This document shows, one piece after another, positions 1 through 21,600 of a stretch of 21,886 bases of DNA. The translations under genes and the position numbers were made by a program. Origin of the DNA: Rhodospirillales bacterium (GTDB lineage Bacteria; Pseudomonadota; Alphaproteobacteria; Bin95). Each line of letters opens with the position of its first letter. The first letter of the stretch is position 1. The stretch spans positions 1 to 21,886 of the forward strand of contig JAYQLI010000006.1 in NCBI GenBank assembly GCA_038143065.1, given 5' to 3'. The notes below the pieces were generated by a model. That model had not been told where the DNA came from. It saw only the letters and a program-made list of their open reading frames with translations, and searched no databases.

Positions 1-62
1 ATGTGATTGAAACACTTTTCGTCTTCATTATCTCTTCACCATATCTAAAAAGGAGACTTGAT

Positions 63-195
63 ATGGCTGAATGTGGTTGTGGGCGTAGCCCAACAGGTAA
101 ATGCGTCGGGTGGCATGGTTTAACTGAGGAACAGTACCAAGAAAAAGAAAGCGCTCTATGATGCAAAACAAGCTTCTAAATCTGCGGCAGAGTAA
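63..195 (+). CDS. Small Cys/His-rich protein, CDGSH-like metal or Fe-S binding motif (about 43 aa after one indel correction)
   Basis: AGGAG RBS at 51-55 and ATG at 63. Reads MAECGCGRSPTGKCVGWHGLTEEQYQEK and stops at 159-161 as sequenced. Removing one A from the run near 142-146 gives ...KKALYDAKQASKSAAE* ending at TAA 193-195, directly before a hairpin. The C-x-C-x7-C-x3-H spacing resembles CDGSH-type ligands. Not in the ORF track. Confidence 0.65.
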
Positions 196-202
196 ACAAC
201 AG

Positions 203-227
203 TGGGGCTGCTATGAATGTAGCCCCA
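203..227. terminator. Hairpin between convergent small genes, possible terminator
   Basis: TGGGGCTGC (203-211) pairs with GTAGCCCCA (219-227), one G-U pair. It lies between the + gene ending at 195 and the - gene ending at 244. No clear U-tail. Confidence 0.45.
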
Positions 228-243
228 TGCAAATACGAACACA

Positions 244-444
244 TCAACCACATTTCCAATACAGCCTAAACTCTTTGTTACCCTTGCGTCCACATACTGT
301 GCATCGGGCCTTATCGGCGACCTGGTTAACCGTTGTATCGGGCTGTAAACGTTTCAGCAATTCTTGCACACTGAAGGCACTGTCATGACCGCATTGGCAG
401 AACAGAGAGATGTGATGCTTGTTTATGAGGTGAAGCTGGGTCAT
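244..444 (-). CDS. Small zinc-ribbon-like hypothetical protein (66 aa)
   Basis: CQCGH ... RCTVCG pair of Cys knuckles typical of Zn ribbons. No clear RBS. Confidence 0.6.
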   Translation of the reverse strand: MTQLHLINKHHISLFCQCGHDSAFSVQELLKRLQPDTTVNQVADKARCTVCGRKGNKEFRLYWKCG

Positions 445-453
445 GTTTGTTAA

Positions 454-720
454 GTGAAAAGTTATGTCATCATAGGTCTGTGCGTTGCTATCTTGGCAAT
501 AATTCTATCTGCTGTTGTCTATGTACCTCCATACTTGAAAGAGCAGCAGCGGCTACGTGATGGCTCAATGGGGTGTGCCAAGTATCGTCGTATGTATCGA
601 GACGCTCTGACGACGTACCAAGAGAACCCTAATGGCAAAAAGCACATCAGAGAATTTATTGCCGCTGAAAGTCTAATGAACAAGCACCGCTGCACATCTA
701 TTGACGAGACAGACAGCTAA
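454..720 (+). CDS. Hypothetical protein with N-terminal membrane anchor (88 aa)
   Basis: Hydrophobic stretch VIIGLCVAILAIILSAVVYV followed by a helical-looking domain with two Cys. Start uncertain: only 9 bp from the divergent ORF. Confidence 0.5.
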   Translation: MKSYVIIGLCVAILAIILSAVVYVPPYLKEQQRLRDGSMGCAKYRRMYRDALTTYQENPNGKKHIREFIAAESLMNKHRCTSIDETDS

Positions 721-786
721 CTTCCACCCAAACTCTTGGCTTAGACCGTCTGAACAACATAGCTTCTAATGCGCCAGCAGGACCTG

Positions 787-864
787 TTAAGTCGCAATGG
801 CAGCTACTACAATTATTGATAGAAGTGTTCCCCACTTCAGGAGTGGGATTACTCTCTTGATCAT
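787..864 (-). CDS. Hydrophobic micropeptide copy 1, MIKRVIPLLKWGTLLSIIVVAAIAT (25 aa)
   Basis: Translated by hand. ATG at 864-862, AGAGG SD 8 nt upstream, TAA at 789-787. Paralog at 1473-1538 shares IPLLKW with synonymous changes. Confidence 0.55.
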   Translation of the reverse strand: MIKRVIPLLKWGTLLSIIVVAAIAT

Positions 865-920
865 TTGCCGTGCCTCTGTCTTTACCGATCTTTTTGTCGG
901 TTGTTAGTGCACGGTAACAT
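831..920. repeat. 90-bp duplicated module, copy 1 (leader plus start of micropeptide)
   Basis: Ungapped match to 1505-1594, 75/90 identical by hand count, offset 674 bp. Contains the inverted repeat ACCGAT-N6-GTCGGT at 884-901. Confidence 0.95.
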
Positions 921-944
921 GAAACATAGGAACAATAATATCCT

Positions 945-1140
945 AAAAAAACAGGTGTAGCTGGCAGGGAATAGCTACACCTGTAGTCAGAGAATGGGAG
1001 TTACGTACGAACGCAACTGTTGCGTCAGATTTCAGCAAATGAAACTGGTTTACAGGAGTTCTGCTACGGATCGGTATCAAGTGATTCAGATACTGATTTG
1101 CGTAATCTTTTCAGGGTGACGTTAAGGCAACCTCTGAACT
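945..1140 (-). ncRNA. Candidate sRNA ending in CUCCC-N7-GACU, hairpin and U-tail (alpha-r8/suhB-like 3' end)
   Basis: Perfect 12-bp inverted repeat ACAGGTGTAGCT (951-962 / 973-984) followed on the - strand by a T run. It is preceded by CTCCCATTCTCTGACT and further hairpins at about 1011-1025, 1026-1047, 1065-1104 and 1110-1138. No ORF. The 5' end and the strand of the upstream hairpins are uncertain. Confidence 0.45.
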
Positions 1141-1252
1141 AATGTCATCTCGCTTAAATTATGTGCATCCTTTAGCAGCAGATTGCTGAAGTTTTTAATT
1201 TTACTTGGACACATTATTAGTGGTGCCGACAAAGCAAGCAATTGATCAATAT

Positions 1253-1441
1253 CTACATTAAAGATGGTGGTGTCTCTGACATTTTAGCCATGCGCTGCTT
1301 GAGTTCTTTTTCGATTTTGTTTGCTTCGTATGGTTTCATCTTTTTCCATCCGGCACTTTCAGCACGAGTGCGACCACATCCTGTGCACCAGCCACTTGGG
1401 CCAGTAAACGGACATATATCCACGCAAGGACTTTTACGCAT
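1253..1441 (-). CDS. DUF1289 family small Cys-rich (predicted Fe-S) protein
   Basis: SPCxxxC...WCxGCGRTxxE...W signature of DUF1289. Confidence 0.85.
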   Translation of the reverse strand: MRKSPCVDICPFTGPSGWCTGCGRTRAESAGWKKMKPYEANKIEKELKQRMAKMSETPPSLM

Positions 1442-1472
1442 TTTTTCATCGTTTTTTGATCCTTGGATGGCC

Positions 1473-1538
1473 CTACGTCGCTGTCACAATAAATAATACA
1501 GATGCCCACTTCAGTAGCGGGATAAACCTTCTGCTCAT
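1473..1538 (-). CDS. Hydrophobic micropeptide copy 2, MSRRFIPLLKWASVLFIVTAT (21 aa)
   Basis: Translated by hand. ATG at 1538-1536 with the same AGAGG SD spacing as copy 1, TAG at 1475-1473. Confidence 0.55.
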   Translation of the reverse strand: MSRRFIPLLKWASVLFIVTAT

Positions 1539-1594
1539 TTGCCTTGCCTCTGTCTTTACCGATCTTCTTATCGGTTATGAGTGCAGGTTAACAT
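1505..1594. repeat. 90-bp duplicated module, copy 2
   Basis: Matches 831-920. Perfect inverted repeat ACCGAT-N6-ATCGGT at 1558-1575. Confidence 0.95.
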
Positions 1595-1628
1595 AGAAAG
1601 GTGTTTCAAAATTGATTATCTCTGTTTC

Positions 1629-1707
1629 AAGAAGAAAACGGCTCAACGCTAGATTACCTTTGAACCCTGCGGAGCCGTTTCCCGTTCTCCTCCCTGAAGA
1701 ACTTTGT
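1629..1707 (-). ncRNA. Candidate ~80-nt two-hairpin sRNA carrying GGGAGGAG (strand not certain)
   Basis: On the - strand: GUUCUUC-AGGGA-GGAGAAC hairpin (1702-1684), then an AAACGGCUC/GAGCCGUUU stem (1680-1636) with a UUUUCUUCUU tail. A promoter-like site sits directly upstream. Read on +, it is a cuckoo-like hairpin with a CCUCCC loop. Confidence 0.5.
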
Positions 1708-1713
1708 GCAGCG

Positions 1714-1741
1714 AGTTTGATCATTTATTGCAATGAGTCAA
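1714..1741 (-). promoter_or_regulatory. Sigma70-like promoter TTGACT-N16-CAAACT
   Basis: -35 at 1741-1736 and -10 at 1719-1714, placed just before the hairpin RNA at 1707-1629. Confidence 0.4.
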
Positions 1742-1779
1742 GGATTTGATGGCTAAGTCTAATTGTCAGAGCAAACAGC

Positions 1780-1850
1780 AAAAAAAAGACCCCGCAAAAA
1801 GCGGGGCCAGTCCAACAGGGAGTGTGGACAGTAGCCACTGTCGTGAGATA
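1780..1850 (-). ncRNA. alpha-r8/suhB-family-like sRNA (MmgR/GsrN/StsR type)
   Basis: On the - strand: CUCCCUGUUGGACU directly followed by GGCCCCGC-UUUUU-GCGGGGUC and U8, the typical 3' architecture of this family as I recall it. Promoter-like TTGACA (1883-1878)-N15-TAAGCT (1862-1857) upstream. Confidence 0.6.
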
Positions 1851-1881
1851 GAGTCCAGCTTAGTTTTGGCAAGACCGTGTC

Positions 1882-2100
1882 AAAAAAAAGAAAAGGTCGG
1901 CCCAATTGACTACAAGAGGAGTGGCCGACCAGTAGCACTGACTTCGAATATAGGGAGGTGAAGTCAGGCCCCTCACATTTCGCAAGGCAACCAATGGGAA
2001 GAGAACAATGTGCCTTGCTCGTCGAAGAGCAAGCCCCTTGTGTTTATTTGTTTTCAAAGAGGAAAGAGGCTGCTCTTCTAATGACTGTTTCGCCAGTCTA
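1882..2100 (-). ncRNA. Multi-hairpin sRNA with anti-SD loops (cuckoo/alpha-r14-like)
   Basis: Three consecutive perfect 8-bp stems (2018-1982, 1967-1938, 1930-1895) with loops containing UCUCUUCCC, CCUCCC and CUCCUC, then a long U-tail. Extra 5' hairpins at 2098-2083 and 2033-2014. Confidence 0.65.
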
Positions 2101-2107
2101 TACCCAC

Positions 2108-2137
2108 ATCATGTCTCATGTTGCGACAATCTGTCAA
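2108..2137 (-). promoter_or_regulatory. Sigma70-like promoter TTGACA-N18-CATGAT for the 2100-1882 RNA
   Basis: Perfect -35 at 2137-2132 and -10 at 2113-2108. The overlapping TGCGACAATCTGTCA (2122-2136) partly resembles a RegA/PrrA box. Confidence 0.5.
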
Positions 2138-2197
2138 GGCATAACAATATTTTGTTAGTATTCGCAACATATAGCTATGCGATTGTGGTCTTAAACT

Positions 2198-2389
2198 TCA
2201 TTCACACTCAGCAATTGCAGCGGTCATACCCATTCCTGTCGTGGTATTTACAAGCGGGATTGAGGTCGCTGCTGCCACACAATCATCAGTTTTTGTTTGA
2301 GTAGTGTCAGGGCTTACGAAGAAGTAAAGCCCAAAGGAAGCTATCCCAGCAACAAGACATATCATCGTTACAGCTAGTCCGTTGTTCAC
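2198..2389 (-). CDS. Small hypothetical membrane-anchored or exported protein (63 aa)
   Basis: GTG start after GAGGGA, N-terminal hydrophobic helix, two Cys in the soluble part. Confidence 0.5.
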   Translation of the reverse strand: MNNGLAVTMICLVAGIASFGLYFFVSPDTTQTKTDDCVAAATSIPLVNTTTGMGMTAAIAECE

Positions 2390-2489
2390 TGTAGATCCCT
2401 CTCGTAAACTTACGATCCCAAACTGTCACATGAAGTACCATCCGTGAAGAGTATACATACAAGACAAAAAGAACGGCACAGCCAGAGAT

Positions 2490-2676
2490 AGTGAGGCAAT
2501 TGTCGTGCATTCTTTGCGTCATGCGTTTCGGGATAGATTACGTGTAGTCGAGTGCCCGTCAGATCTGGATTGATCATCTTGGTGGATGGTCTCGAAATAG
2601 CATTGGGGACAAGTACGGTCGTAGATACAATCTGGCATCTCTGTTCAAATGGTTGCTTGCGATACGATTGCATTAA
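2490..2676 (+). pseudogene. Tyrosine recombinase/integrase C-terminal remnant
   Basis: Hand translation gives AIVVHSLRHAFRDRLRVVECPSDL, a frameshift near 2568, then IDHLGGWSRNSIGDKYGRRYNLASLFKWLLAIRLH*. It contains the HxxRH, LGGW and catalytic Tyr motifs. No N-terminal part upstream. Confidence 0.85.
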
Positions 2677-2822
2677 CCTATTTGACCATTATCGGAGCGA
2701 GAGTGTCTGATGCAGCAATTGGATGATAATATCCAAACAGCTAGCACACACTATCGGCACATTTTATTGCAAGCCACTTATGCATTTTCCTTGGTCTCCG
2801 ACCCACCATCTTTTGGCTTTGT

Positions 2823-3908
2823 CTATTCCTGCGATTGAACGTAAGCGAGAACTTTAATCAGTCCTAACGGTATTTCGGGGCGTAGACCGCGGGGGTGTGA
2901 GGAGGGAAACTCCCTTTTGGGAGTGTCAATTTCCCTTTTAGGTGCAGGTTTTCGCCAAATAAACTGATAGCTTTCGATTACATTCGATCGGGAAATTGGA
3001 ATTCCCGGCAGGGCGACCCAATCGGGGCAAGGGCGGTTCAAAAAGGACGTTATTGTTGTTCTTGCCGCAACTTCTCCTTGCTGAAAAGGCCGTTGGCCCG
3101 CAATACCTACGACGGAACCACCGCTTGATAGGTCAATTGTTACCTCATTCCCCAGGTCCACAGTCGTGATGGGTAGCTTAAATTCCCGTTGCGAGAATGC
3201 CTTTAGGATTTCCTCGCACGGGGTATCCCACACCGCGAATAATCCCGAAATCTCGGGGTTCTTCTCGACAAGAGCAACAGCTTCGGACCCTGCGGTTTCA
3301 ATGGATGCAAATCGGGCAGTTTTCAGTATGACGTCTGGCCGATTGATCTCGATCCACTGACCAAACGCTATTTCTCGTTCATTGGATGCAAAGAAATCTG
3401 CGTCATACCCGATAACTCCCACAATTGAATTCGGAGGCAGATGTTCCGACAAAAGTTCTGCTGCGATTTTCCCCAACCCGTAATTGTCAGCCGAAACAAG
3501 CGAAATATAGTCCTTACCCGGAAGCATGCCGATCGGGGCATTGTCAATCAACACGAGCTTTATACCCGCTCTTGCAGCAGTAACATAGGCATCGGCGACA
3601 GTCGCGTTATCGACGGGTAACGAAATAATCGCATCTGGGTTTTCAGCGCACATGCGGTTTAAAGCTTCGATTTGCTTTGCTGGGGGAAAAGTCACAATCC
3701 ACAACGTCAATTACAATAGCTCCGCATTCGCCAAGTACACCGACGATCCCTTGGACAAGATGTTGGACCAATCGCTTTCCATCGTATGCATGACGATGGC
3801 AATGCGCAGCTTCTTGACCCGGGCGGACTCTATGTCTTGAGGCAACAAAGTAACCCGCTCTGGTGGTGAGGCGCGTTCGCCATGCGGTCCTAGTCCGACG
3901 ATTGTCAT
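2823..3908 (-). CDS. RbsB/LacI-type sugar-binding domain protein lacking signal peptide and HTH (frameshifted)
   Basis: AAGGAG RBS and ATG at 3908, 11 bp after the ROK stop. ORF pieces 3711-3908, 3643-3912 and 2823-3710 join via frameshifts near 3765 and 3685. Shares IVMH..DWS, VSADNYG, ADFF, AVWDxP, ITTxDLG and QRPFxQG with the binding protein at 6316. The C-terminal end is uncertain. Confidence 0.8.
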
Positions 3909-5455: not shown

Positions 5456-6268
5456 ATGAGCGAATGGAAGCTGGCTTATCAGGCGAACTGTTGGGGTGAT
5501 CTTGGTGGTAATGCCGAAGGCGTGACATCGATCACACAGCTAAGTTACCGAACCTTTGGCGACATAGATCGTGCCTGCGCCGAAATCGCAGCGGCAGGTT
5601 ACGCTGGCGTTGAATTGTTTGATGGTAACCTGCTGGACTACAGCGCCGCCGACTTTCGCGGCCTGCTGACCAATAACGGTTTGGCGCTTGTGGCTGCCTA
5701 TTCAGGTGCCAACTTCATTTTCGACGATATCCTGCCCGAGGAGTTGGCCCGCATCACCCGTGCCGCTGACCGCGCCGCCGAGTTGGGCGCGCCGCATCTG
5801 GTGGTGGGCGGTGGAGCCAAGCGTTTTGATGGTATCCGCGATACCGACTATGACAAACTGGGCGCTGCATTAGATCGCGTTAAGGCCTTGGCCGAGGAAC
5901 GCAGCCTGACCGCTCATTACCACCCGCATCTTTCAACGATTGTTGAAGGTCCGGCCGATGTGAGCAGAATTTTCGACCTAACAGCGATAGATTTCTGCCC
6001 CGATACCGCACATTTGGCAGCGGCCGGAGGCGACCCGGCGCAACTGATCCGCGATCACGCTGACCGCATATCCTACATTCATCTTAAAGGGCTTCAAAAC
6101 GAACCTTTTGCGTTCACACCGCTGGATCGCGGTGATGTGCCGACCGACCCGATTATCGCCGCCATGCGCGAGACGCAGTTCACCGGATGGGTCTGCACCG
6201 AACTAGATGCCTGGGACGACCCTGCCGAAGGTGCACGTGCCAGCATGGACTACCTAACCCAAGCCTAA
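5456..6268 (+). CDS. Sugar phosphate isomerase/epimerase TIM barrel; candidate 3-keto-levoglucosan beta-eliminase (LgdB-like)
   Basis: GGAGGAG RBS. GYAGVEL, YHPH, PDTAH, YIHLK and ELD metal-ligand motifs of the xylose-isomerase-like barrel. Specific role inferred from the lgdA context. Confidence 0.75.
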   Translation: MSEWKLAYQANCWGDLGGNAEGVTSITQLSYRTFGDIDRACAEIAAAGYAGVELFDGNLLDYSAADFRGLLTNNGLALVAAYSGANFIFDDILPEELARITRAADRAAELGAPHLVVGGGAKRFDGIRDTDYDKLGAALDRVKALAEERSLTAHYHPHLSTIVEGPADVSRIFDLTAIDFCPDTAHLAAAGGDPAQLIRDHADRISYIHLKGLQNEPFAFTPLDRGDVPTDPIIAAMRETQFTGWVCTELDAWDDPAEGARASMDYLTQA

Positions 6269-6315
6269 TCGGTTTATTTTCACGGGGTTCGCCCCATCTT
6301 CTGGGAGGAAGAACA

Positions 6316-7429
6316 ATGTTTACACGTAGAACACTTATGGGATCGGTTGCCGCGATTGCAATTGCTCTTAGCGCTATGCCGGCAGCGGCAGATCCGACCG
6401 CAGCTTTGGCTGCGCTTCAGGAAAGCGTTCTGTCCAAAGGACCGAACGGCGAGGACAAGCCCGGCGGCTGATCTGTCGCTGAGCGGTGCCGAGATCGACC
6501 AGATCAAAGCTATGAATGCAACTGCGGCGATTGTTATGCATTACGGCGGAAACGATTGGTCGCGTGCACAGATCGAAGGTTTGAAATTCCAGTTCGCTGA
6601 AATGGGTATAGACGTTATCGCCGTCACTGACGCTGGCTTTAAGCCAGAAAAGCAGGTGGCAGATATCGAAACTGTCATGGCGCGTCAGCCAGATATTATC
6701 GTATCTGTTCCCACTGATCCGGCAGCAACTGCTGCAGCGTACAAAGCGGCTGCGGAAGCTGGTGTGAAAATCGTGTTCATGGAAAATACTCCTCCGGGCA
6801 TGACTGCCGGCGAGGACTATGTGTCGGTTGTGTCAGCCGACAACTACGGCAACGGTGTTGCGGCAGCCCATCTGATGGCGGACGCCCTTGGCGAGGATGG
6901 CGGTCAGATCGGTCTGGTTTATCACGCCGCGGACTTCTTTGTGACGTCAGCGCTATGACGCATTCAAAGCAACCGTTGAGGCAACTATCCTGAGATCGAA
7001 ATTGTTGCCGAACAGGGTATTGGCGGACCGGACTTCACTGGCGATGCAGAAAAAGTGGCCCGGCCATGCTAACCTCTCGGTCTGATATCGACGGCATTTG
7101 GGCTGTTTGGGATGTCCCTGCCGAAGGTGTAATTTCGGCTGCACGCGTCGCTGGTCGTAACGATCTAATCATCACCACGATCGACTTGGGCGAGAACGTT
7201 GCCATCAACATGGCACAGGGCGGTTTCATCAAAAGGCCTGGGCGCGCAGCGTCCGTTTGATCAGGGTGTCGCCGAAGCGATGCTGGCGGGTTATGGCCTG
7301 CTGGATAAAGCTGCCCCTGCCTTTGTTGCCCTGCCGGCACTTCCGGTCAGCAAAGACAACCTTCTGGAGGCTTGGCAAACAGTTTATCGCACAGAAGCCA
7401 CCAAAAACATCCAAAGCAGCATGAAATAA
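6316..7429 (+). CDS. Sugar ABC transporter substrate-binding protein (RbsB-like, Tat-type signal; frameshifted)
   Basis: GGAGGA RBS and MFTRRTLMGSVAAIAIALSAMPAAA signal. Pieces 6347-6958, 7066-7260 and 7199-7429 join through about five 1-bp indels. Confidence 0.85.
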
Positions 7430-8664: not shown

Positions 8665-10236
8665 TGTCAACTGTTGCCGTCCGCATGACGGGCATTTCCA
8701 AACACTTTGGTGGCGTCAAGGCTCTCGATAACGTGGATTTTGAGGTCTTCGCTGGTGAAGTCCATGCCCTTCTGGGCGGCAACGGTGCTGGCAAATCAAC
8801 CATCCTGAAGGTTCTGAACGGGGTTCATATACCCACCGCCGGAACGATCGAGGTGGCCGGCGTCCCGCTGACCACCCACACACCTCGCTGCATCCCGTGC
8901 CGCAGGAATTGCCATGAACTATCAGGAAATGAGCCTGATACCGACGCTTACAGTGGCGCAGAATGTATTTCTGACACGCGAACCCCTGACAGGCGGGATG
9001 ATCAACGACAAAGAGGCCGAGCGCAAGGCGGCTGAGTTGTTCCGTATGTTAGAGGTCGACATTGACCCTTCCTCGATTGTCGGAGATTTGGGAGCAGGGC
9101 AGAAGCAACTGACCGAGATTGTTAAAGCGATCTCGCAGGATGCGCGGGTTCTGGTACTGGACGAACCCTCGACTGCGTTGGCAGTGTCGGATGAACCGTC
9201 TGTTTACCTTTCTGCGTAAACTGAAATCCCAAGGCGTGGCGATTATCTATGTCAGCCACCGCATGGATGAAATTGCCCGAATTGCCGATCGTGCCACAAT
9301 CCTGCGGGATGGTAAGCATGTGACCACGGCCGATATGGCTGATCTGCAGATTGACACCATGATCGAACATATCGTCGGCAAACGCTCGCTAGGACTGGCG
9401 GATGTCGAACGCAAAGACGTCATACGCGGCGATATTGCGCTGGAGCTGCGCAATGTTTGCGGGCGCGACAAGCCTCAGAACATTTCGTTGAGCATCCACA
9501 AGGGCGAGGTTGTGGGACTTGCAGGTCTTTTGGGATCAGGCCGGACATCTTTGGCAAAGTTGATCGCGGGCATTGAGCCGATCACCTCGGGAGAGATCCT
9601 TATCAACGACCGCCCCGTGAACATTCGCCGTCCAAGCGATGCTATAGCGGCCGGCGTGGCGCTGGTGCCCGAGGCGCGTGCGACCCAAGGCATTATTCCG
9701 GCACACTCGGTTGCCGACAACGCAACTCTTGCGGTGCTCGACGATCTATCCAACGCCGGATTTGTTGATGTCAACAAGTTGCGCCAAACGACTGATGCCC
9801 AGATAAAGAGCTTGTCGATTAAAACCGCCAGTCGAAATCATGCAGTCAGCACTTTGTCCGGCGGTAATCAGCAAAAGGTTGTCATTGGAAAATGGTTAGC
9901 TGCAGACCCCGACGTGTTTGTCTTGGACGAACCGACCGCGGGTATCGACATTGGCTCCAAATCCGAGATCATCCAAATGGTTCGGGATCTGGCGGCCAGC
10001 GGTAAGGCAATCCTGATGATTTCATCCGAGTTATCAGAACTGCTGACCGCCTGCGACCGCATCATCGTGATGGCAGACGGCCGCGTCTATGATGACATCC
10101 CTCATGTCGATCTGGAAGATCCTGCCGAGGTCAATTCCAACGCTGCCCATAGATTGCAGCTCGCCGAACAACGACTGCAAATCGCAATTCAAGAGGCCCT
10201 GACCGCAGGGCAGGAGGTTTCAATGGTCAACGCTGA
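8664..10236 (+). CDS. Sugar ABC transporter ATP-binding protein (RbsA-like, two ATPase domains; frameshifted)
   Basis: GGNGAGKST Walker [16 protein letters not shown], then [17 protein letters not shown] and LDEPTAG. Frameshifts near 8885 and 9195. Probable true stop is TGA 10234-10236. Confidence 0.88.
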
Positions 10237-11191
10237 CACAAATCCAACGTCAAAGGCATTTAACGCGTTTCTGGCAAACTGGCGCCAAAACATCATCTAC
10301 ATTGGCTTTGTTGCGATCTTTGTAATCTTCGCCCTGACGCTGAACGACCGCGGCTTTTTGAACATGAACAATCTACTGAACATCGTGCGCCAGACAACCA
10401 TGATCGCGGTGATGGCTGTTGCAATGACTTTCGTGTTATCGGCAGGTGAGATTGACCTGTCCGTAGGAGCGGTTGCCGGGCTCGCCAGTGTAAGCGTGGC
10501 CATGGCGATATCCGTCGCCGGACCTTTTGGCGGTATAATTGCCGGATTGGCGACCGGGATCGCGATCGGTGTGTTTAACGGCTGGCTGACGACCAAAATA
10601 GGCATCCCATCGTTCCTGACCACGCTTGCCATGATGGGGATCGCAAAAGGCATCGCTATGTGGGTCTCTGATACTGCTGCGGTTCCGATCCTTTCGCAAA
10701 GCTATGCCTGGTGGTTCGGCGGAGGCTCAATAGGGCTTGTGCCGGTTCTGTTGTTTTGGATGCTCATCTTCGGTGCTGTTGGTCACGTCGTGCTGCGCCG
10801 CACCAGCTTCGGTCGCCGCGTTCTGGCAACTGGCGGTGGTGAACAGGCGGCCAGCTATTCCGGCATTAATACCGCCCGCATCAAGTTTCGAGTGCTGGTT
10901 CTTTCATCAACAGCAGCGGCAATTGCGGGAATGCTCTATGCGGGCCGTTTGCAATCGGGTCGGTTCCAGCTGGGAGAGGGCGACGAGCTTTCGGTTATCG
11001 CTGCCGCAGTGCTGGGTGGTACATCTTTGTTCGGTGGTAAAGGCACAGTGATAGGCACCATTGTTGGGGCTTTGATGATCGGTCTGATCAACAACGGTCT
11101 GATCCTGATGGGGCTGGAGTTCAGCCAGCAACTGATCGCCCGTGGTGGCATTATCATCTTAGCCGTTGCGCTAAGTCAGAAAAGGAGCTGA
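10223..11191 (+). CDS. Sugar ABC transporter permease (RbsC-like)
   Basis: Own CAGGAGG RBS before ATG 10223. GEIDLSVG, IPSFLTTL, FGRRVLATGG and IAAAVLGGTSLFGG motifs. Confidence 0.92.
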   Translation: MVNADTNPTSKAFNAFLANWRQNIIYIGFVAIFVIFALTLNDRGFLNMNNLLNIVRQTTMIAVMAVAMTFVLSAGEIDLSVGAVAGLASVSVAMAISVAGPFGGIIAGLATGIAIGVFNGWLTTKIGIPSFLTTLAMMGIAKGIAMWVSDTAAVPILSQSYAWWFGGGSIGLVPVLLFWMLIFGAVGHVVLRRTSFGRRVLATGGGEQAASYSGINTARIKFRVLVLSSTAAAIAGMLYAGRLQSGRFQLGEGDELSVIAAAVLGGTSLFGGKGTVIGTIVGALMIGLINNGLILMGLEFSQQLIARGGIIILAVALSQKRS

Positions 11192-15175: not shown

Positions 15176-15649
15176 GCCGAGATTATCCTGAGCGTGTTAC
15201 AAGTTGAACGTGTAACTTTGACCACCATACCATCTGCTTTATTCCTAGCAAGCTTATCAAATGACTCAAAAAGTATCACTTGATAAAGTAGATTTCAGAG
15301 CAACTGAAGGGAGTGACGTTGGGTATTTTGTAATTACAAGAGAAGGCTATTTGTCGGTTGCCCTGGAGTGTGTACTAACCTTTTCTCAAACAGCTAAATG
15401 TGATTTCGCGCAAATCACTGTCGAGGCGTGTAGTGACATGACCCACCACATCAACTTTGCCAGTGGTTTCTTTTACGTCTCCTAGCATTTTTTTCCGGTA
15501 TCGTTGTTTGCTAGTATTGAAGTACAATCGTGTCCAAAATTTGGACTTTTGTAAGTTGTTTAATTTTCGATGCTGCTCTAACCGTTGTTAGAGTAAGGTC
15601 TTTAATGCTGCCAATGACAGCCTATAAGACCGCAATTCCGGAGATTAAT

Positions 15650-18600
15650 ATGCTGCCAAAAATCAATGTCTATTCCTCAGATTTTTCGGCTGAGGAGGGA
15701 TCTAATACCGCATCATTTACCTTTACCAGAACAGGTGAACTTCAGAATGAACTGTCATGCGCTGTCGCATTTGCCGGAACGGCTGTAAGTGGTGTTGATT
15801 TCGAATCCTTGAGTGAAACCGTTAATTTCGCAGTTGGTCAAGACACGGTCACACTTCTGATAAACCCAAAATCTGACAGCACATTAGAAGGAGCAGAACT
15901 TGTCACCTGCACTATTCAAGACAATGCTGCATATTTAATAGAAAACGCCTCAGCGACGATTAGCATAAGTGACAAAGGATATGTTGATGACGGTTTCGTC
16001 GCAAAGCTAGATGATACTTTCTTATTACATAGTAAGCCTGATGCCAAGCATACTATTTACCTAGATTTCTTTGGCGGTGATTATTACACCTACAACACAA
16101 TATTGCCTTATAATTCGGATGGCGACGCTTCCAACCTGTCTGATGCTGAAAAGCTAGAAATTCAAAAAATCTGGGCTGGGATAGCGGAAGATTTTGCTCC
16201 TTTCAATATCGATGTCACGACTGAAACGCCGGCAGATGGTGCGCTGGTAAATACAGGCGGTGATGACGACGCGTGGGGTGTTTCTCTTCTGATTGGGGAG
16301 GAAACGACAGGATATGGTTTTGCGTGGTCTGGGAGTGAATTCCCCCTGGATTATGCAGCGCCCGGTTATGTATCAATTAACAGTCAGTTCCAAGATGGTA
16401 TTTATCCTCTAACCGTAATCGCTACGGGTGGAAGCCACGAAATTGCACATACGATGGGCTTGAGCCATGATGGTCCAGGTTCTGGGGGATACTACTCGGG
16501 CCATGACACGACAGTCGGGCACTGGAATACCATTATGGGTCTATCAACCAGTGGTCTTACTCAGTTTAGCAAAGGTGACTACGCAAATGCCGATAACACT
16601 GAAGATGATCTTAGCATCATTGCAAGCGACCTAAATGGGATTTCGTACATCGTTGATGAGCATGCGGATGAGCGTAGTTTTGCGACTGAGCTCGTCAAAT
16701 TAGATGATGGCTATGGATCGCTCTTTGCTCAAGGCATAATCAGCACCAGCGACGATGTGGACTGGTTTTATTTTGATCATTCAGGCGGCTCGATCGTTCT
16801 AAATGTTGATGTCGCAGAGTTCAGCCCGGAATTTACACGCAGGTGCTTGGTTATATGACTCAAATGGAGGTGAGCTGATTGCTTCAACAAGTGAGTCCTC
16901 ATTGTCTGCTGCGATTATTTCCCCCAATCTCTCAGCGGGTCGATACTATTTAAAAGTAGATGGGATCGGAAACGATAGTGGCGGTGGCTACACTGATTAC
17001 GGCAGTCTGGGGCAATATGAAATTTCCAGTGGTGTAGGTGTACTTGCAAGCTACGACCCTGATAATCAGTCTGCCGGGGATAGTATCGCAGGAACCACGC
17101 AGTTCTCCTCTTTGTCGCTTGGTGGATTGAGTGGGGCGAGCGTTGGTAACAGCATGTGGGAGGATGTTTGGGCGTTATGGTGGGATGCACGTAGTCAGAT
17201 TGATACCTCTGAATATATCAGCTTTGCCGTGACGCCCGGAGGTAATGAGGAGCTGGCGCTGTCTAGTTTGAGTGCTTCGTTCTACTCATTTTCCCCTGGC
17301 GAAACTCACGTGACACTACGTTCTAGCCTGGATGATTTTACCAATGACATTGACACTGAAAAGGTCCTCGGCGGCAACTCAGCCACCTTAATTGAGTTTG
17401 ATCTTGAAACATTGCCGCGTGTCGATGCGTCAATTGAGTTTCGTCTACACATGACGAGTGATCGGGCTCCGGTTTCCGTTATTTGACGGGCTCAAACTAC
17501 CAATATGATACGAATGCTCAAGGTATCAAACTTGTGGGGCGTGTCCTCAGTCAAAGTAACGCAGACACTACGCCAAAAATTATGGGGTCATTTGATTTTG
17601 GCTATGAACTAACCAGCACTGAAGTTGCCGTCGATGCTACATTAACAGTGACAACCTCCAATGTCGAAGATGGTCAGTTAGTGACGTTGGCGCTTAATGG
17701 TAAGACGTATACTGGCGAGGTATCGGCAAACCGGGCTCAAATCGTGGTAGAAGCAACTGACTTAATGGAACTAAGTGCTGGTGCTGTCAGTTACACGTTA
17801 TCCGTATCCAACAGCGCTAACATCCCTGCCGCTGATTATGTCTCTGAATTTGTCTATGATCTTGCGGCAGAGCGTCCTGCATCCGCTCAAAGAGCGACGA
17901 ATATTAATGAAAAAGTTCGACTAGATCAGCAATTTAATGAGCTTGTCAATGAATCGAGTAGCGAAGTTGCTCTGATTGAAATTGTCAGTGGACCAGTCCG
18001 TGGATCGCTTGAAAATGACGCTCAAGGCCACTGGTATTACGTGCCTGACCAAAATTACCTAGGGGATGATAGCTTTTCTTTTCGTGCTACCAGCAGTTCT
18101 GGAGAAGTTAGCGAGGTGATGGCCTTCGATTTAATGGTCAAAGATGTGCCAACCATTCAGCCAACTCCAGAAAACCCATTCAGTCCTTCAAGTAGTTCTT
18201 CTGCAACCGGGACGCTGTTGGCAGAGGCAACTGCTCGTCAAATCATGGCGCCAGAATTTGTGACTGCGGACCCAACCGCAGGAGTTTTGTATGGTGCAAT
18301 CGCAGAAGATGCTGCGCGTGTTACCCGTGGGGTGAGCTTGGACGTCGCCGAACAGTTTCTTGACCCTGTTACGGCTCAGTCGAGTACATACTATACAACC
18401 GGACTTTATGCCGCTCCCGGTGAATTAGTTTATATCGAAGTCCCTAGTGAGATGGTGGGCATCGGTGCAAAAATAAGGCTCTCTACATGGAATGATAATC
18501 TCTCTGGTCGAAGTGAGTGGGATCGCGCACCTTATGCAATATCTCGAATTTACGATATTGATGAACCCATCATTAAGGTTGCCGGTGCGTTTGGTGGGCT

Positions 18601-21600
18601 AATCTATCTAGATGTTCCACTTGGCACACAAGCTCAAACGGTTAATCTCATAATCGATGGTGCGATTGAGGCTCCACATTTCATCCTGGGTGAAACAACG
18701 AATGACGAGTGGGTTAATGAGGTTCGCGATAATCCAGCGCCCTTTGGCGTCTTAGCCGCTGATAATATTGAGCTGTATCTACCAAGTAATACCTTGCGTG
18801 AGCTTGATAATCCCACAGAAGTTATGACCTGGTGGAGTCAGGTAATAGATATACTTGACGATCTCTCGGGTAAGGAGCGACTGAGGCCCGAAGCATTTTC
18901 GTTCGATGTAGATACTCAAGCCGGCTACTTGAGCGCGGGTTATCCGAATAAGGCCCCTCTTGATTATGCGGATAACTTTTTAGATCTTCAGTCTCTTAAG
19001 GCTGAGGGATTGTGGGGCGCTTTTCATGAACTTGCTCATTTGCATCAGGACACAGAGTTTACCATCGGGGGCGACTCCGAGGTTAATGTCAATATATTTA
19101 CACTCTACGTATATGACCAGTTGGGTATTTATCACTACAATACGACTGTTGATCGTCGCGTTGAAAAAGCGGACTCGCTCTTTGATAAAAGTCTCACCTA
19201 CCGCGATGGGGACGCATGGCAAAAGCTGACGTTCTATCACCAAATTATTCAAGAGTTTGGCTTTGAGCCGTTTAAAACATTTTTTAGGACTTACTATGAC
19301 GATAGTCCTGAAAGCCTTGCCTGGGGATTTGGCTCAAACCGGCTGGATGATCAGCAAGAAGTATCACAACTGTTTGTGCGCCTCTCGAAGATTATTGGTC
19401 GTGATTTGTCACCTCACTTTGACGCTTGGGATTTCAGGATAAGCACGGTCACAAGATTACCGCAGATGATCGCGGATCCGTGGCGCATCTGGCTAGAGTG
19501 GTCCAGTGATAGATGTATTATTCATTCCGAAGAAATGTTGGTGTTTTTGAAGGAGGTTCAGCGACCAGTATTGATTTTGATTTGTCTGACAATGTCTGGA
19601 ATTTTGGTAGCAATGGTGCGTTAACGTTCACACCTGCTGCTGACTTTTCGAACAGTGAGCTTATTTCCCTGGGTGGCGGGAAGTTTCGGTTTACACCCAA
19701 TGCTGATTTTGATGGTAGCGAAGGGATTACAATTAACGTTGCAAACTCCGATGGCGGATTGGCTACGGTAAGTGTGGTGGCAGCGATTGGTGAAGAGACG
19801 ACATTTACAAAAAGGGCAGGACACATACATAGGTAAAGAGGTTGTAGGCTCTCAGGAGGCTTCAGGAAAAGTATAGTAGTTGATGGACGATGAACCCTGA
19901 CGAGAAGGCAATCCCGCTAATTCAATTTACTGAGATTTTTGGTGATGCACAGGATCAGATTAAGTTACAATCTGAAGTTTTTAAAGCAGTCCTTCAGCTA
20001 AAGACCACCGAGGGATTTGCAGCTTTCGACTTGGTTCCAATTGTATCGAGTGGTCAGCTCAATTACCTGGGAAGGCTCTGATTCACTGCCTTCTAATGTA
20101 TCGCTAGCTCCTGATGCTGAAGATTCGCCAAATTCTTCCACGAGCGCTTCTACGCTATCTTTTGAGCGTTACTGACAGCAAGAAAGCTTGGGTTGCGGGT
20201 GAATCCAACAACTACGGATGGGCGCTGATTCCGAGCACCAACTCAGACGGAACTGGAATACATTCGTTTGAGGCAACTGACGTCTCATTGCGCCCAACAT
20301 TAACGGTTACTTGGTCTGCCTCAACAATGGCAACCCCTATCTCCAACGCCCCTAAATTTGCATTTGAAACGGTAAGTTTAAGTGTTGACGAAAACGATGC
20401 AGGACTACCGGTAATCTACACTGCAGAACTTAGCGATAACTCTGCCTCCCAGATGCAACGCAGCTATTCATTATCCGGGCCCGGATGCGTCACAGTTCAC
20501 AGTTAGTCCAAGCGGCGCTGTTAGTCTTCTTCAGCCTGCAGACTTCGAGGCTAAGCAGAGTTACGACCTCACCCTATCATTGACCGATGGTATAAACCCG
20601 CGAAATAGCCAAACTCTTTCGGTAAGGGTAAACAACCTGAACGATAATGCTCCTACCTTTAATGTTGCAACACAGACCGTCCGAATCGATGAGAACTCAT
20701 CGGCATCTGCTGTAGTGTTTGATGCATCAGCATCTGATGAGGATGGAGATCCTGCTTATACCTTGAGTTAAATTGAGTAAGGATGCGGCGTTAATTGACG
20801 CAGAACTGGTGAGTTAAGATTAACGTCTGTATCTGACTTCGAGGTTAGAGAAGCTACCGCCTTACTGTCACTGCATCTGATGGCGGGACCGCAGTGGCAA
20901 CGCAAGATGTCATAGTTGAGGTCAATGACATCGATGAAACTATGCCAAAGTTTTCCAACAACAAGTTCTAATGGATGTGGCCGAAAATTCGTCTGCAAGG
21001 AATGTCGTTTTTACGGCGCAGGCGACAGATGGTGACGGAAGCGTCCTAGCTATGCGTTAAGCGGAAAAGATGCGGAGCAGTTTGTCATTTAACTCTGCAA
21101 CTGGACAAGTAAGACTCAAGACATCAGCGGATTATGAAACTCAATCATTCTACACTTTCAACGTGATAGCATCAGATGGAGTAAATACTGATGCTGCACA
21201 GCAAGTTATACTCAATGTTATAAATGCAAATGATAATGCCCCCAATTTGCGAACTCTAATGCTACGGGGTTCATCGATGAGAACGCCCCGCTAGGCAAAG
21301 TTGTGTTTAAAGGCGATTGCTCAGGACTTTGACGGTGATAGCTTGTCGTTCTCTCTTAGCGGTACGGATGCTTCATTCTTGAGTATTGATGCAGTAACAG
21401 GAGAGGTCCGTCTTAAACAGGCCGCTACAGCTGCAGATAAGAGCGAATACGTATTCTCTGTAAACGTCAGTGATGGTGAAAATCAGGCGGTGCAGGCTGT
21501 AACGCTTAAAGTTGAACTGCAACAGCATGTGCTAACAATGGATAACTCTGTATCTTTGGTGAAGACAAAAGCTTTTGAGGGCGTGTCAGCGGTCAACCTA

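Follow-up and report, generated by a model that had tools for sequence, protein, structure and literature searches.

Two type I toxin-like micropeptide ORFs in a Rhodospirillales contig are 5′ stubs related to a Peptidase_S11 gene

Contig JAYQLI010000006.1 of a Rhodospirillales bacterium carries, twice and on the minus strand, a short hydrophobic open reading frame (ORF) behind a leader with a hairpin, which raises the question of whether these ORFs are genes in their own right or pieces of something else. A first-pass annotation of the locus read them as a type I toxin-like or regulated micropeptide family, of the kind known from Hok/Sok, Ldr/Rdl, Ibs/Sib and TisB/IstR. The stretch of DNA analyzed here (the window) is the whole contig, 21,886 bases long and labeled C6 in our data, from a genome of 4.63 Mb in 52 contigs with ~47% G+C.

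The repeat itself was confirmed. A repeat search returned one two-copy family, consisting of two ungapped direct copies of 90 nucleotides (nt) at positions 831-920 (copy 1) and 1505-1594 (copy 2), which are identical at 75/90 positions (83%). Each copy begins a short minus-strand ORF whose N-terminus is basic and whose tail is hydrophobic: 25 amino acids (aa) at 787-864 (MIKRVIPLLKWGTLLSIIVVAAIAT) and 21 aa at 1473-1538 (MSRRFIPLLKWASVLFIVTAT). As the annotation had noticed, the two differences within the shared IPLLKW motif are both synonymous (CCA/CCG and CTC/CTA), and the leader is kept better than codons 2-5 (49/56 vs 6/12 identical positions between the copies). Past W11 the copies are separated by an in-frame 3-nt gap, and the hydrophobic character is retained. 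BLASTN of 787-960 against the same genome found copy 2 at E 5.5e-21 (83% identity over 90-95 nt), the remaining 19 of the 21 listed matches being 14-33 nt long with E ≥ 0.031. Likewise, an eight-copy profile searched against the whole genome detected only the two window copies (E 3e-30 and 7e-28), with four other matches at E 2.3-6.1. A candidate inverted third copy at 2463-2487 was rejected: it is only a 25-nt match, shows no leader or ORF similarity by eye, and is missed by the profile search.

The origin of the two ORFs is indicated by relatives in metagenome contigs. A search of these contigs with an 18-base core of the repeat gave 24 loci, nine of which share flanking sequence with the window copies while 15 are chance matches; because the relatives were gathered with this single word, more diverged copies will have been missed. 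In two of the nine (L046 and L056), the leader and the MSRRFIPLLKW start continue into a 267-aa ORF (MSRRFIPLLKWASILLILTVTAAVSAPYAAIVID...), and in a third (L043) the shared leader and start are followed by a frame that stays open for 46 codons, up to the contig end. Both 267-aa proteins belong to the Peptidase_S11 family (PF00768, E 8e-43 and 1e-43), with the domain beginning at residue 28, and their relatives in the PDB, which are PBP5/DacC-type structures (4k91_A at E 7e-31), align from residues 24-31 on. Since the domain and the structural alignments begin after them, residues 1 to ~27 constitute a leader peptide (...TAAVSA/PYAA), and the first ~25 residues look like a Sec signal peptide, whose layout we take to be a basic start, a hydrophobic stretch and a ...A-L-S-A/P-Y-A-A end. 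Of 2,494 homologues, the best 120 include 38 in which P[LP]x[KR]W lies among residues 1-16 and precedes a hydrophobic stretch and then ...A-L-S-A/P-Y-A-A; to judge from these alignments, the IPLLKW-type N-terminus is native to the S11 family.

Both window copies match the front of this gene. Copy 2 (1477-1578) shares 91% of 102 nt with the beginning of the S11 gene in L056, and copy 1 is 87.5% identical to it over 72 nt (831-902) and 93.8% identical to L057 over 48 nt; between loci, copy identity ranges from 80 to 94%. At the protein level, tblastn with the 267-aa protein aligned its residues 1-21 with stub ORF 2 (81% identical, E 1.3e-7) and its residues 1-22 with stub ORF 1 (54.5% identical, E 3e-4). 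No trace of the mature S11 domain was found in 1-3000, where all tblastn matches besides these two N-terminal ones have E ≥ 0.8. Nucleotide similarity to L056 stops at 1477 in copy 2, beside the stop codon, and similarity of copy 1 to its relatives stops at ~809-815. Because similarity ends at about codon 18-21 and the mature domain is absent, the window copies are 5′ stubs: by homology each is a 5′ fragment of a Peptidase_S11 gene, and neither holds the PF00768 domain. Both ORFs thus read as truncated signal peptides, apparently cut before the signal-peptidase site.

The break points differ from locus to locus. The shared sequence ends just past the Shine-Dalgarno sequence in L057, at codon 5 in L049 and at codon 18-21 in the window copies, and is not broken in L046 and L056. 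In L049, the leader and five codons run into unrelated sequence as a 22-aa ORF, with an exported-protein ORF ~185 nt downstream, and in L057 only the promoter-like sequence, hairpin and Shine-Dalgarno sequence are present, with no ORF, followed by the 3′ end of a convergent gene. Accordingly, ORF lengths are unstable, with stubs of 21, 25 and 28 aa as against 267 aa in L046 and L056. Where each ORF stops is determined by its join to foreign sequence; the short ORFs would be by-products of that join, and not a conserved peptide gene. Together, the nine relatives and window copy 1 represent five contexts: L035/L044/L048/L051, L046/L056/L043, L049, L057, and window copy 1.

A type I toxin-like or regulated micropeptide family is not supported by these observations: homologues run on as long ORFs, and the short ORFs end at varying positions. 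The first-pass annotation had named such read-through as the outcome that would overturn it, and in L046 and L056 the 267-aa S11 ORF does proceed from the shared leader and the first 11-21 codons. The S11 homology supports the alternative that the annotation itself had put forward, in which both copies are remnants of the 5′ end of a longer gene for an exported protein. Adding one base at the copy-1 stop, which the annotation expected to extend the ORF, does not restore the S11 gene, because no mature-domain similarity remains anywhere in 1-3000. We consider it probable that the copies are duplicated 5′ ends of a secreted Peptidase_S11 (PBP5/DacA-like) gene that is no longer in the genome, and that their promoter has been reused. 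The homology part of this promoter-reuse reading is close to certain and its functional part is much less so.

The 267-aa protein was found in 0/37 genomes of the host order (which comprises 37 species genomes) at E ≤ 1e-60, and in a sample of the class it is matched in 3/401 genomes, by long forms (open frames of 498-565 aa) with 47-50% identity. The genome under study has only two S11 paralogues, with 36% identity. BLASTN of the module in the family's 36 other genomes gave 0 matches at E ≤ 0.01. Against 185,579 species genomes, a 19-base core found 12 loci, none with flanking similarity; these chance matches fall in Psychrobacter genes (10), one Nitrospirota genome and one Eubacteriales genome. 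The 18-base core found 0 loci in viral contigs, and neither plasmids nor phages yielded a BLASTN match to window 1-2800 at E 1e-5. Rfam has no family over either copy or in six related loci, and within 600-2700 its only matches lie in the small RNA (sRNA) region discussed below. All 23 public runs listed for the window contain ≤ 0.21 of the sampled words.

The sequence ahead of the start codon points to what may have been carried along. TGnTAnnnT occurs just upstream of the leader hairpin in 7/8 aligned copies, the exception being L056, where it ends in C, and TTG stands 16 nt upstream of this box in 6/8. We infer that TGnTAnnnT is an extended -10 sigma-70 promoter, from which transcription would start 6-8 nt downstream and give a 5′ untranslated region (UTR) of ~40 nt that opens with the hairpin. 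AGAGG is identical in 8/8 aligned copies, although it belonged to the search word. On this basis, ~110-140 nt from the front of an S11-like gene would have been copied to several places, each stub carrying an extended -10 promoter, the ~40-nt UTR with its hairpin, AGAGG and ATG, and the first 18-21 signal-peptide codons, which cover the basic n-region and IPLLKW and reach into the hydrophobic core. The stubs would have landed in at least five contexts, in a fluid region that abounds in small genes and sRNAs and lies beside an integrase remnant.

The likely beneficiary of the captured expression signals is the gene downstream of copy 2, which encodes a DUF1289 protein. Copy 2, ~30 nt before this gene, would most likely supply it with transcription and with an upstream ORF. 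The orthologous locus of copy 2 is present in L035, L044, L048 and L051, which are 91.6% identical to 942-2499 and also match 422-703, and L044, L048 and L051 additionally match window 244-444. In 4/4 of these loci the stub ORF is 28 aa long and its TGA overlaps the DUF1289 ATG (ATGA), a 5-nt difference having removed the TAG stop of the window. The indels of the orthologous loci recur in metatranscriptome contigs of runs X1 and X4, and contigs from three metatranscriptome studies (X1, X4 and X8) span 1505-1594, which is not proof of transcription. In this commoner environmental form, the stub ORF is placed so that it could be translationally coupled to DUF1289 through the ATGA. Between the window and L051, the stub ORF differs by one nonsynonymous and no synonymous change, plus the 5-nt indel at the stop; its aligned 63 nt are 98% identical, compared with 87-88% for the ORFs at 244-444 and 454-720.

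Copy 1 has a different history. It is absent from L035, L044, L048 and L051, where window 704-941 is replaced by ~115 unrelated nt after a conserved terminator. This terminator is predicted to end the DUF1289 transcript and stands directly upstream of copy 1. Copy 1 was also considered as a clean insertion with a target-site duplication, and this was rejected, the empty site in L035, L044 and L048 being a swap of ~238 nt for ~115 unrelated nt. In run X18, two contigs have a joint from 830 to 1505 and the 674 nt between the repeats are gone, as would result if the repeats had recombined with each other. A contig of run X8 covers 439-849 and then proceeds like copy 2. Taken with the orthologous loci, these contigs show that two-copy, copy-1-less and recombined one-copy forms all therefore occur. 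No gene lies downstream of copy 1, toward which an 88-aa ORF at 454-720 converges. Copy 1 may be the later and more decayed duplicate, and if active, it would only direct antisense transcription into this 88-aa ORF.

Several observations weigh against reuse of the S11 promoter. The direction from gene to stub is argued from the spread of the N-terminus and not from a tree, and the parent gene is found in metagenome contigs only, the best 120 homologues all being of metagenome origin. The four mapped runs are assembled contigs, which give arrangement variants and not strand, transcript ends or expression level, and their uncovered parts carry no meaning. In the window, the stub stop (1473-1475) and the DUF1289 ATG at 1441 are separated by a gap of 31 nt, with no overlap. 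DUF1289 has its own AAGGA upstream of the start and, because of this, may not need the stub. Nor is constraint on DUF1289 evident in the comparison with L051, which gives a nonsynonymous divergence (dN) of 0.035, a synonymous divergence (dS) of 0.055, and 5 nonsynonymous and 2 synonymous codons. At the putative promoter of copy 2 the spacer has 13 nt, 3 fewer than the 16 of the relatives, and a consensus promoter scan calls no promoter at either copy. Given the short spacer, the poor -35 match of copy 1 and the empty scan, both window promoters may be weak or dead. Finally, were transcription to begin further upstream, a long stem in copy 1 would cover the Shine-Dalgarno sequence and AUG (z-score -3.15), which fits a regulated leader.

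If the promoters are indeed dead, the stubs would be inert debris with no effect on DUF1289 or other genes, a reading that we hold to be rather unlikely. It is favored by the short spacer of copy 2, the poor -35 match of copy 1 and the lack of a promoter call, and it suits L057, which retains promoter and UTR with no ORF behind them, as well as the four orthologous loci that manage without copy 1 and the drift of the ORF ends. Against it, the TGn extended -10 box is kept in all but one of the eight copies, and extended -10 promoters tolerate a weak -35. The stub ORF is also closer to its counterpart in L051 than the flanking ORFs are, and metatranscriptome contigs cover copy 2, with the limit already given.

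It is improbable, in our estimate, that the conserved unit is instead a cis-regulatory leader RNA (a structured 5′ UTR, sRNA target or thermosensor) reused before different genes, with the signal-peptide codons carried along as part of the structure. This would account for the leader being kept better than codons 2-5 and for L049 and L057, which retain the leader without the ORF. Two hairpins also recur. The hairpin that the first-pass annotation placed upstream of AGAGG (ACCGAY-N6-RTCGGT) is present in all folds of both window copies, and a second, within codons 6-12, pairs the Pro CCN with the Trp UGG; the two appear together in the folds of both window copies, L035, L046 and L056, with z only -1.4 to -2.4. 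In the UTR hairpin, 4/6 pairs are invariant and none has a two-sided change, and 1/8 sequences (L043) leaves the second pair open; the invariance of the 3′ arm of this hairpin is by construction, as the arm falls inside the search word. The coding hairpin is kept in 6/6 copies that share the coding part, with three wobbles and one two-sided change (U-A to C-G in L046), in which a Leu-to-Pro and Lys-to-Arg double change preserves the base pair. Covariation, however, does not exceed that of shuffled alignments: 81.9% of cells are paired as against a shuffled mean of 80.0%, and one two-sided pair was reached by 241/500 shuffles.

The long stem that had been proposed to lie next to the Shine-Dalgarno sequence (866-873 with 909-916) stood up in part. 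In copy 1 it forms over the Shine-Dalgarno sequence and AUG if the upstream part is transcribed, with 0/200 shuffles as good, and it is weaker elsewhere: z is -0.49 to -2.27 in copy 2 and the relatives, 5/8 pairs are possible in copy 2 on the minus strand (manual count), and the stem is poor in the two full-length S11 genes (manual count from the alignment). It appears when the fold includes 15-20 nt more upstream, and its 5′ arm coincides with the putative -10 box. In folds from the putative start, the partner of the Shine-Dalgarno sequence differs among copies or is absent. The presence of sRNAs with CCUCCC loops 200-500 nt upstream would suit a regulated leader; the Rfam result over the copies does not, and an identity of 80-94% suits recent copying as well as constraint.

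The least probable of the readings, and one we regard as very doubtful, is that an orphaned signal peptide gave rise to functional micropeptide genes, encoding type I toxin-like or small membrane proteins, whose action an antisense or trans-acting RNA restrains. A short ORF with a basic N-terminus, a hydrophobic tail and a good Shine-Dalgarno sequence at the correct spacing, present in two copies in one genome, hydrophobic past W11 despite the in-frame gap and set in an island with sRNAs whose CCUCCC loops could pair with AGAGG, would fit it, but homologues continue into an enzyme-like protein of 267 aa, C-termini and lengths vary even at the orthologous locus, and NCBIfam, scanned with E values up to 10, gave no match to the two peptides, on which Pfam was not run. 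No antisense gene was found, with no plus-strand promoter or terminator at either copy; of 3 promoter-like sites in 1-3000, 0 are plus-strand sites at 780-960 or 1470-1640, and folding is no better on the plus strand (z -0.57 and -1.90) than on the minus strand. The idea that the leader mismatches are G-U pairs on the plus strand holds for copy 1 and for 2/3 of the copy 2 mismatches, while the one-sided hairpin changes in the relatives are minus-strand wobbles, favoring the minus strand.

A long shot is that an orphaned signal-peptide stub, complete with promoter, leader and ribosome-binding site, serves as raw material for new small membrane-peptide genes and upstream ORFs. The stubs would then be translated into membrane-inserting peptides of 21-28 aa, the output of DUF1289 would depend on how the copy-2 stub is translated, and the CCUCCC sRNAs might act on AGAGG. 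If true, one sRNA would control every gene that captured the cassette.

Among known phenomena, the closest is that of putative mobile promoters (PMC3575422; Nijveen, Matus-Garcia and van Passel, 2012), which were defined by ≥ 80% identity over ≥ 50 nt of upstream sequence, in a screen of the region from -150 to -50 that discarded pairs with similar coding starts. Similarity here reaches that threshold both inside the genome (83% over 90 nt) and among loci (80-94%), the downstream sequences past codon 5-21 are unrelated (DUF1289, the S11 gene, the exported protein of L049, or nothing), and no known mobile element is attached. The present case differs in that the reused piece reaches through the UTR into the first 5-21 codons, leaving a short ORF, and in that the parent gene can be named. 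The published screen would have excluded these stubs, because their first codons are shared and this was counted there as paralogy. The repeat is thus real but ordinary, a fresh example of an already known type of event. Its value lies in being a clear and datable reuse of promoter, UTR and start codon, with a nameable parent, at least five landing sites and three natural arrangement variants, and it is useful material for asking how horizontally acquired small genes such as DUF1289 gain expression signals. Translation of the stubs, if it takes place, would illustrate one route by which new small membrane proteins can arise.

The general features of type I toxin-antitoxin systems, as outlined in PMC8309996 and PMC11228461, are shared as far as a short hydrophobic ORF, some leader structure, more than one copy and an island location. 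By contrast, neither an antisense RNA gene nor a complementary one nearby was found here, ORF length and C-terminus are unconserved, the peptide is the front of the signal peptide of a 267-aa protein, and sequestration of the ribosome-binding site is not consistent across copies; of the features that mark such systems, the small hydrophobic ORF (under ~60 aa) is present and conservation of the ORF is not. A false lead is thereby removed: a two-copy hydrophobic ORF with a tidy leader mimics a type I toxin, yet is a cut-off export signal, and searches for micropeptides or type I toxins should include a test of whether the frame continues in relatives. Bacterial operons commonly contain upstream ORFs whose translation is coupled to that of the following gene through an ATGA overlap, and the overlap seen in 4/4 orthologous loci would belong with these, unlike the gapped arrangement of the window.

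Periplasmic PBP5 has an N-terminal export signal. The parent of the stubs belongs with the low-molecular-weight penicillin-binding proteins (PBP5/DacA and DacC; PDB 4k91, 3it9 and 1nzo) and appears to share this signal, whereas the window has the signal-peptide stub only, with no domain. The parent subfamily differs from these proteins in being short (~267 aa), without a C-terminal domain or anchor, and in having Gly for the catalytic Ser. In 112/120 of the best homologues (P0001-P0120) the Ser of SxxK is replaced in this way (PAG[LI]TK), PASLTK being present in only 5/120, which are longer forms, and the PDB alignment sets the Gly opposite the Ser of pASLTK. The ~267-aa family may be a non-catalytic PBP5-like binding protein. 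The coordinates of all features are collected in Table 1.

Table 1. Features of the repeat pair, its surroundings in the window and the full-length relatives. Coordinates are window positions unless a locus is named.
Feature	Coordinates	Strand	Description
Copy 2 of repeat	1505-1594	-	Putative extended -10 box, 5′ UTR, first 11 codons; 83% identical to 831-920
Copy 1 of repeat	831-920	-	Repeat search
Stub ORF 2	1473-1538	-	21 aa; putative truncated signal peptide of S11-like gene
Stub ORF 1	787-864	-	25 aa; putative truncated signal peptide, more diverged than stub ORF 2
Shine-Dalgarno AGAGG, copy 2	1547-1551	-	8 nt ahead of ATG at 1538
Shine-Dalgarno AGAGG, copy 1	873-877	-	8 nt ahead of ATG at 864
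Putative promoter, copy 2	1585-1609	-	TTGAAA (1609-1604), 13-nt spacer, TG (1593-1592), TAACCT (1590-1585)
Putative extended -10 box, copy 1	911-919	-	TG-T-TACCGT; -35 position matches poorly
5′ UTR hairpin, copy 2	1558-1575	-	ACCGAU-AAGAAG-AUCGGU; in every fold of copy 2
5′ UTR hairpin, copy 1	884-901	-	5 pairs; fold prediction
Coding hairpin (codons 6-12), copy 2	1505-1521	-	CCCGCU-ACUGA-AGUGGG; Pro CCN pairs with Trp UGG
Coding hairpin, copy 1	831-847	-	CCCACU-CCUGA-AGUGGG
DUF1289 gene	1253-1441	-	62 aa; PF06945, E 1.8e-15; downstream of copy 2
Intrinsic terminator	945-983	-	Stem of ~12 bp and U run, -21.8 kcal/mol, z -5.25; kept in L035/L044/L048
66-aa CxxC ORF	244-444	-	dN 0.053, dS 0.60 vs L051
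63-aa hydrophobic ORF	2198-2389	-	dN 0.09, dS 0.41 vs L051
sRNA-like element	~1885-2020	-	Three stem-loops, CCUCCC and CUCCUC loops, strong terminator; -44.6 kcal/mol, z -2.59
SorX (Rfam)	1782-1849	-	47.9 bits vs threshold 46.6 bits; CUCCCUGUUGGA single strand and terminator; tandem with sRNA-like element
Full-length S11 gene	L046:744-1544	-	PF00768
Full-length S11 gene	L056:716-1516	-	PF00768

On the minus strand, the order from 5′ to 3′ is the ORF at 2389-2198, the sRNA-like element, SorX, copy 2, DUF1289, the terminator, copy 1, the convergent 88-aa ORF at 454-720 and the 66-aa CxxC ORF at 444-244, with ~270 non-coding nt between DUF1289 and the terminator at 983-945. The ORFs at 244-444 and 2198-2389 are likely to be real genes under purifying selection, as their dN and dS values suggest; neither has a match above the curated cut-off, and the 63-aa ORF has a sub-threshold Otopetrin match (16.3 vs 27.8 bits). 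Over 1746-2304, the ORFs of the window look non-coding because L051 has indels or stop codons there, and at 1746-1961 identity to L051 is 97%, the only indels being of single bases in homopolymer runs. The sRNA-like element is not in Rfam, and a weak GcvB match (22.8 bits) at 1781-1938 overlaps it only in part. It has the highest contig depth of the mapped 3 kb in three metatranscriptomes, and 1904-2016 is free of differences in X1.

Similarity to the orthologous loci stops at 2499, in what appears to be an integrase remnant: 2490-2800 on the plus strand matches C41:13386-13695, where a Phage_integrase gene has its 3′ end, at 98% identity, and the genome has 46 integrase-family matches. Other non-coding segments of 57-120 nt with 80-95% identity are common to the metagenome loci and to other contigs of the genome (L046:339-397 and L056:311-369; C1:15797-15853 and C1:16234-16295; C12:80231-81187; C41), and these are apparently further small elements dispersed in islands.

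The remainder of the window includes a sugar-uptake and oxidoreductase cluster at 2823-3710 (minus strand), 5456-6958 and 9119-11191 (both plus strand), with ~54% G+C as against 47% in the genome. It looks broken or oddly fused, a partial Peripla_BP_4 domain being found in two ORFs and an ABC ATPase and permease in one 690-aa frame; these breaks could be pseudogenes or assembly indels. A low-G+C block at 15530-19624 on the plus strand encodes two proteins: one is Calx-beta/Reprolysin-like, though both matches fall short of the cut-off curated by Pfam, and the other, of 713 aa, is a Peptidase_M60 (enhancin-like) protein that also has a bacterial Ig domain.

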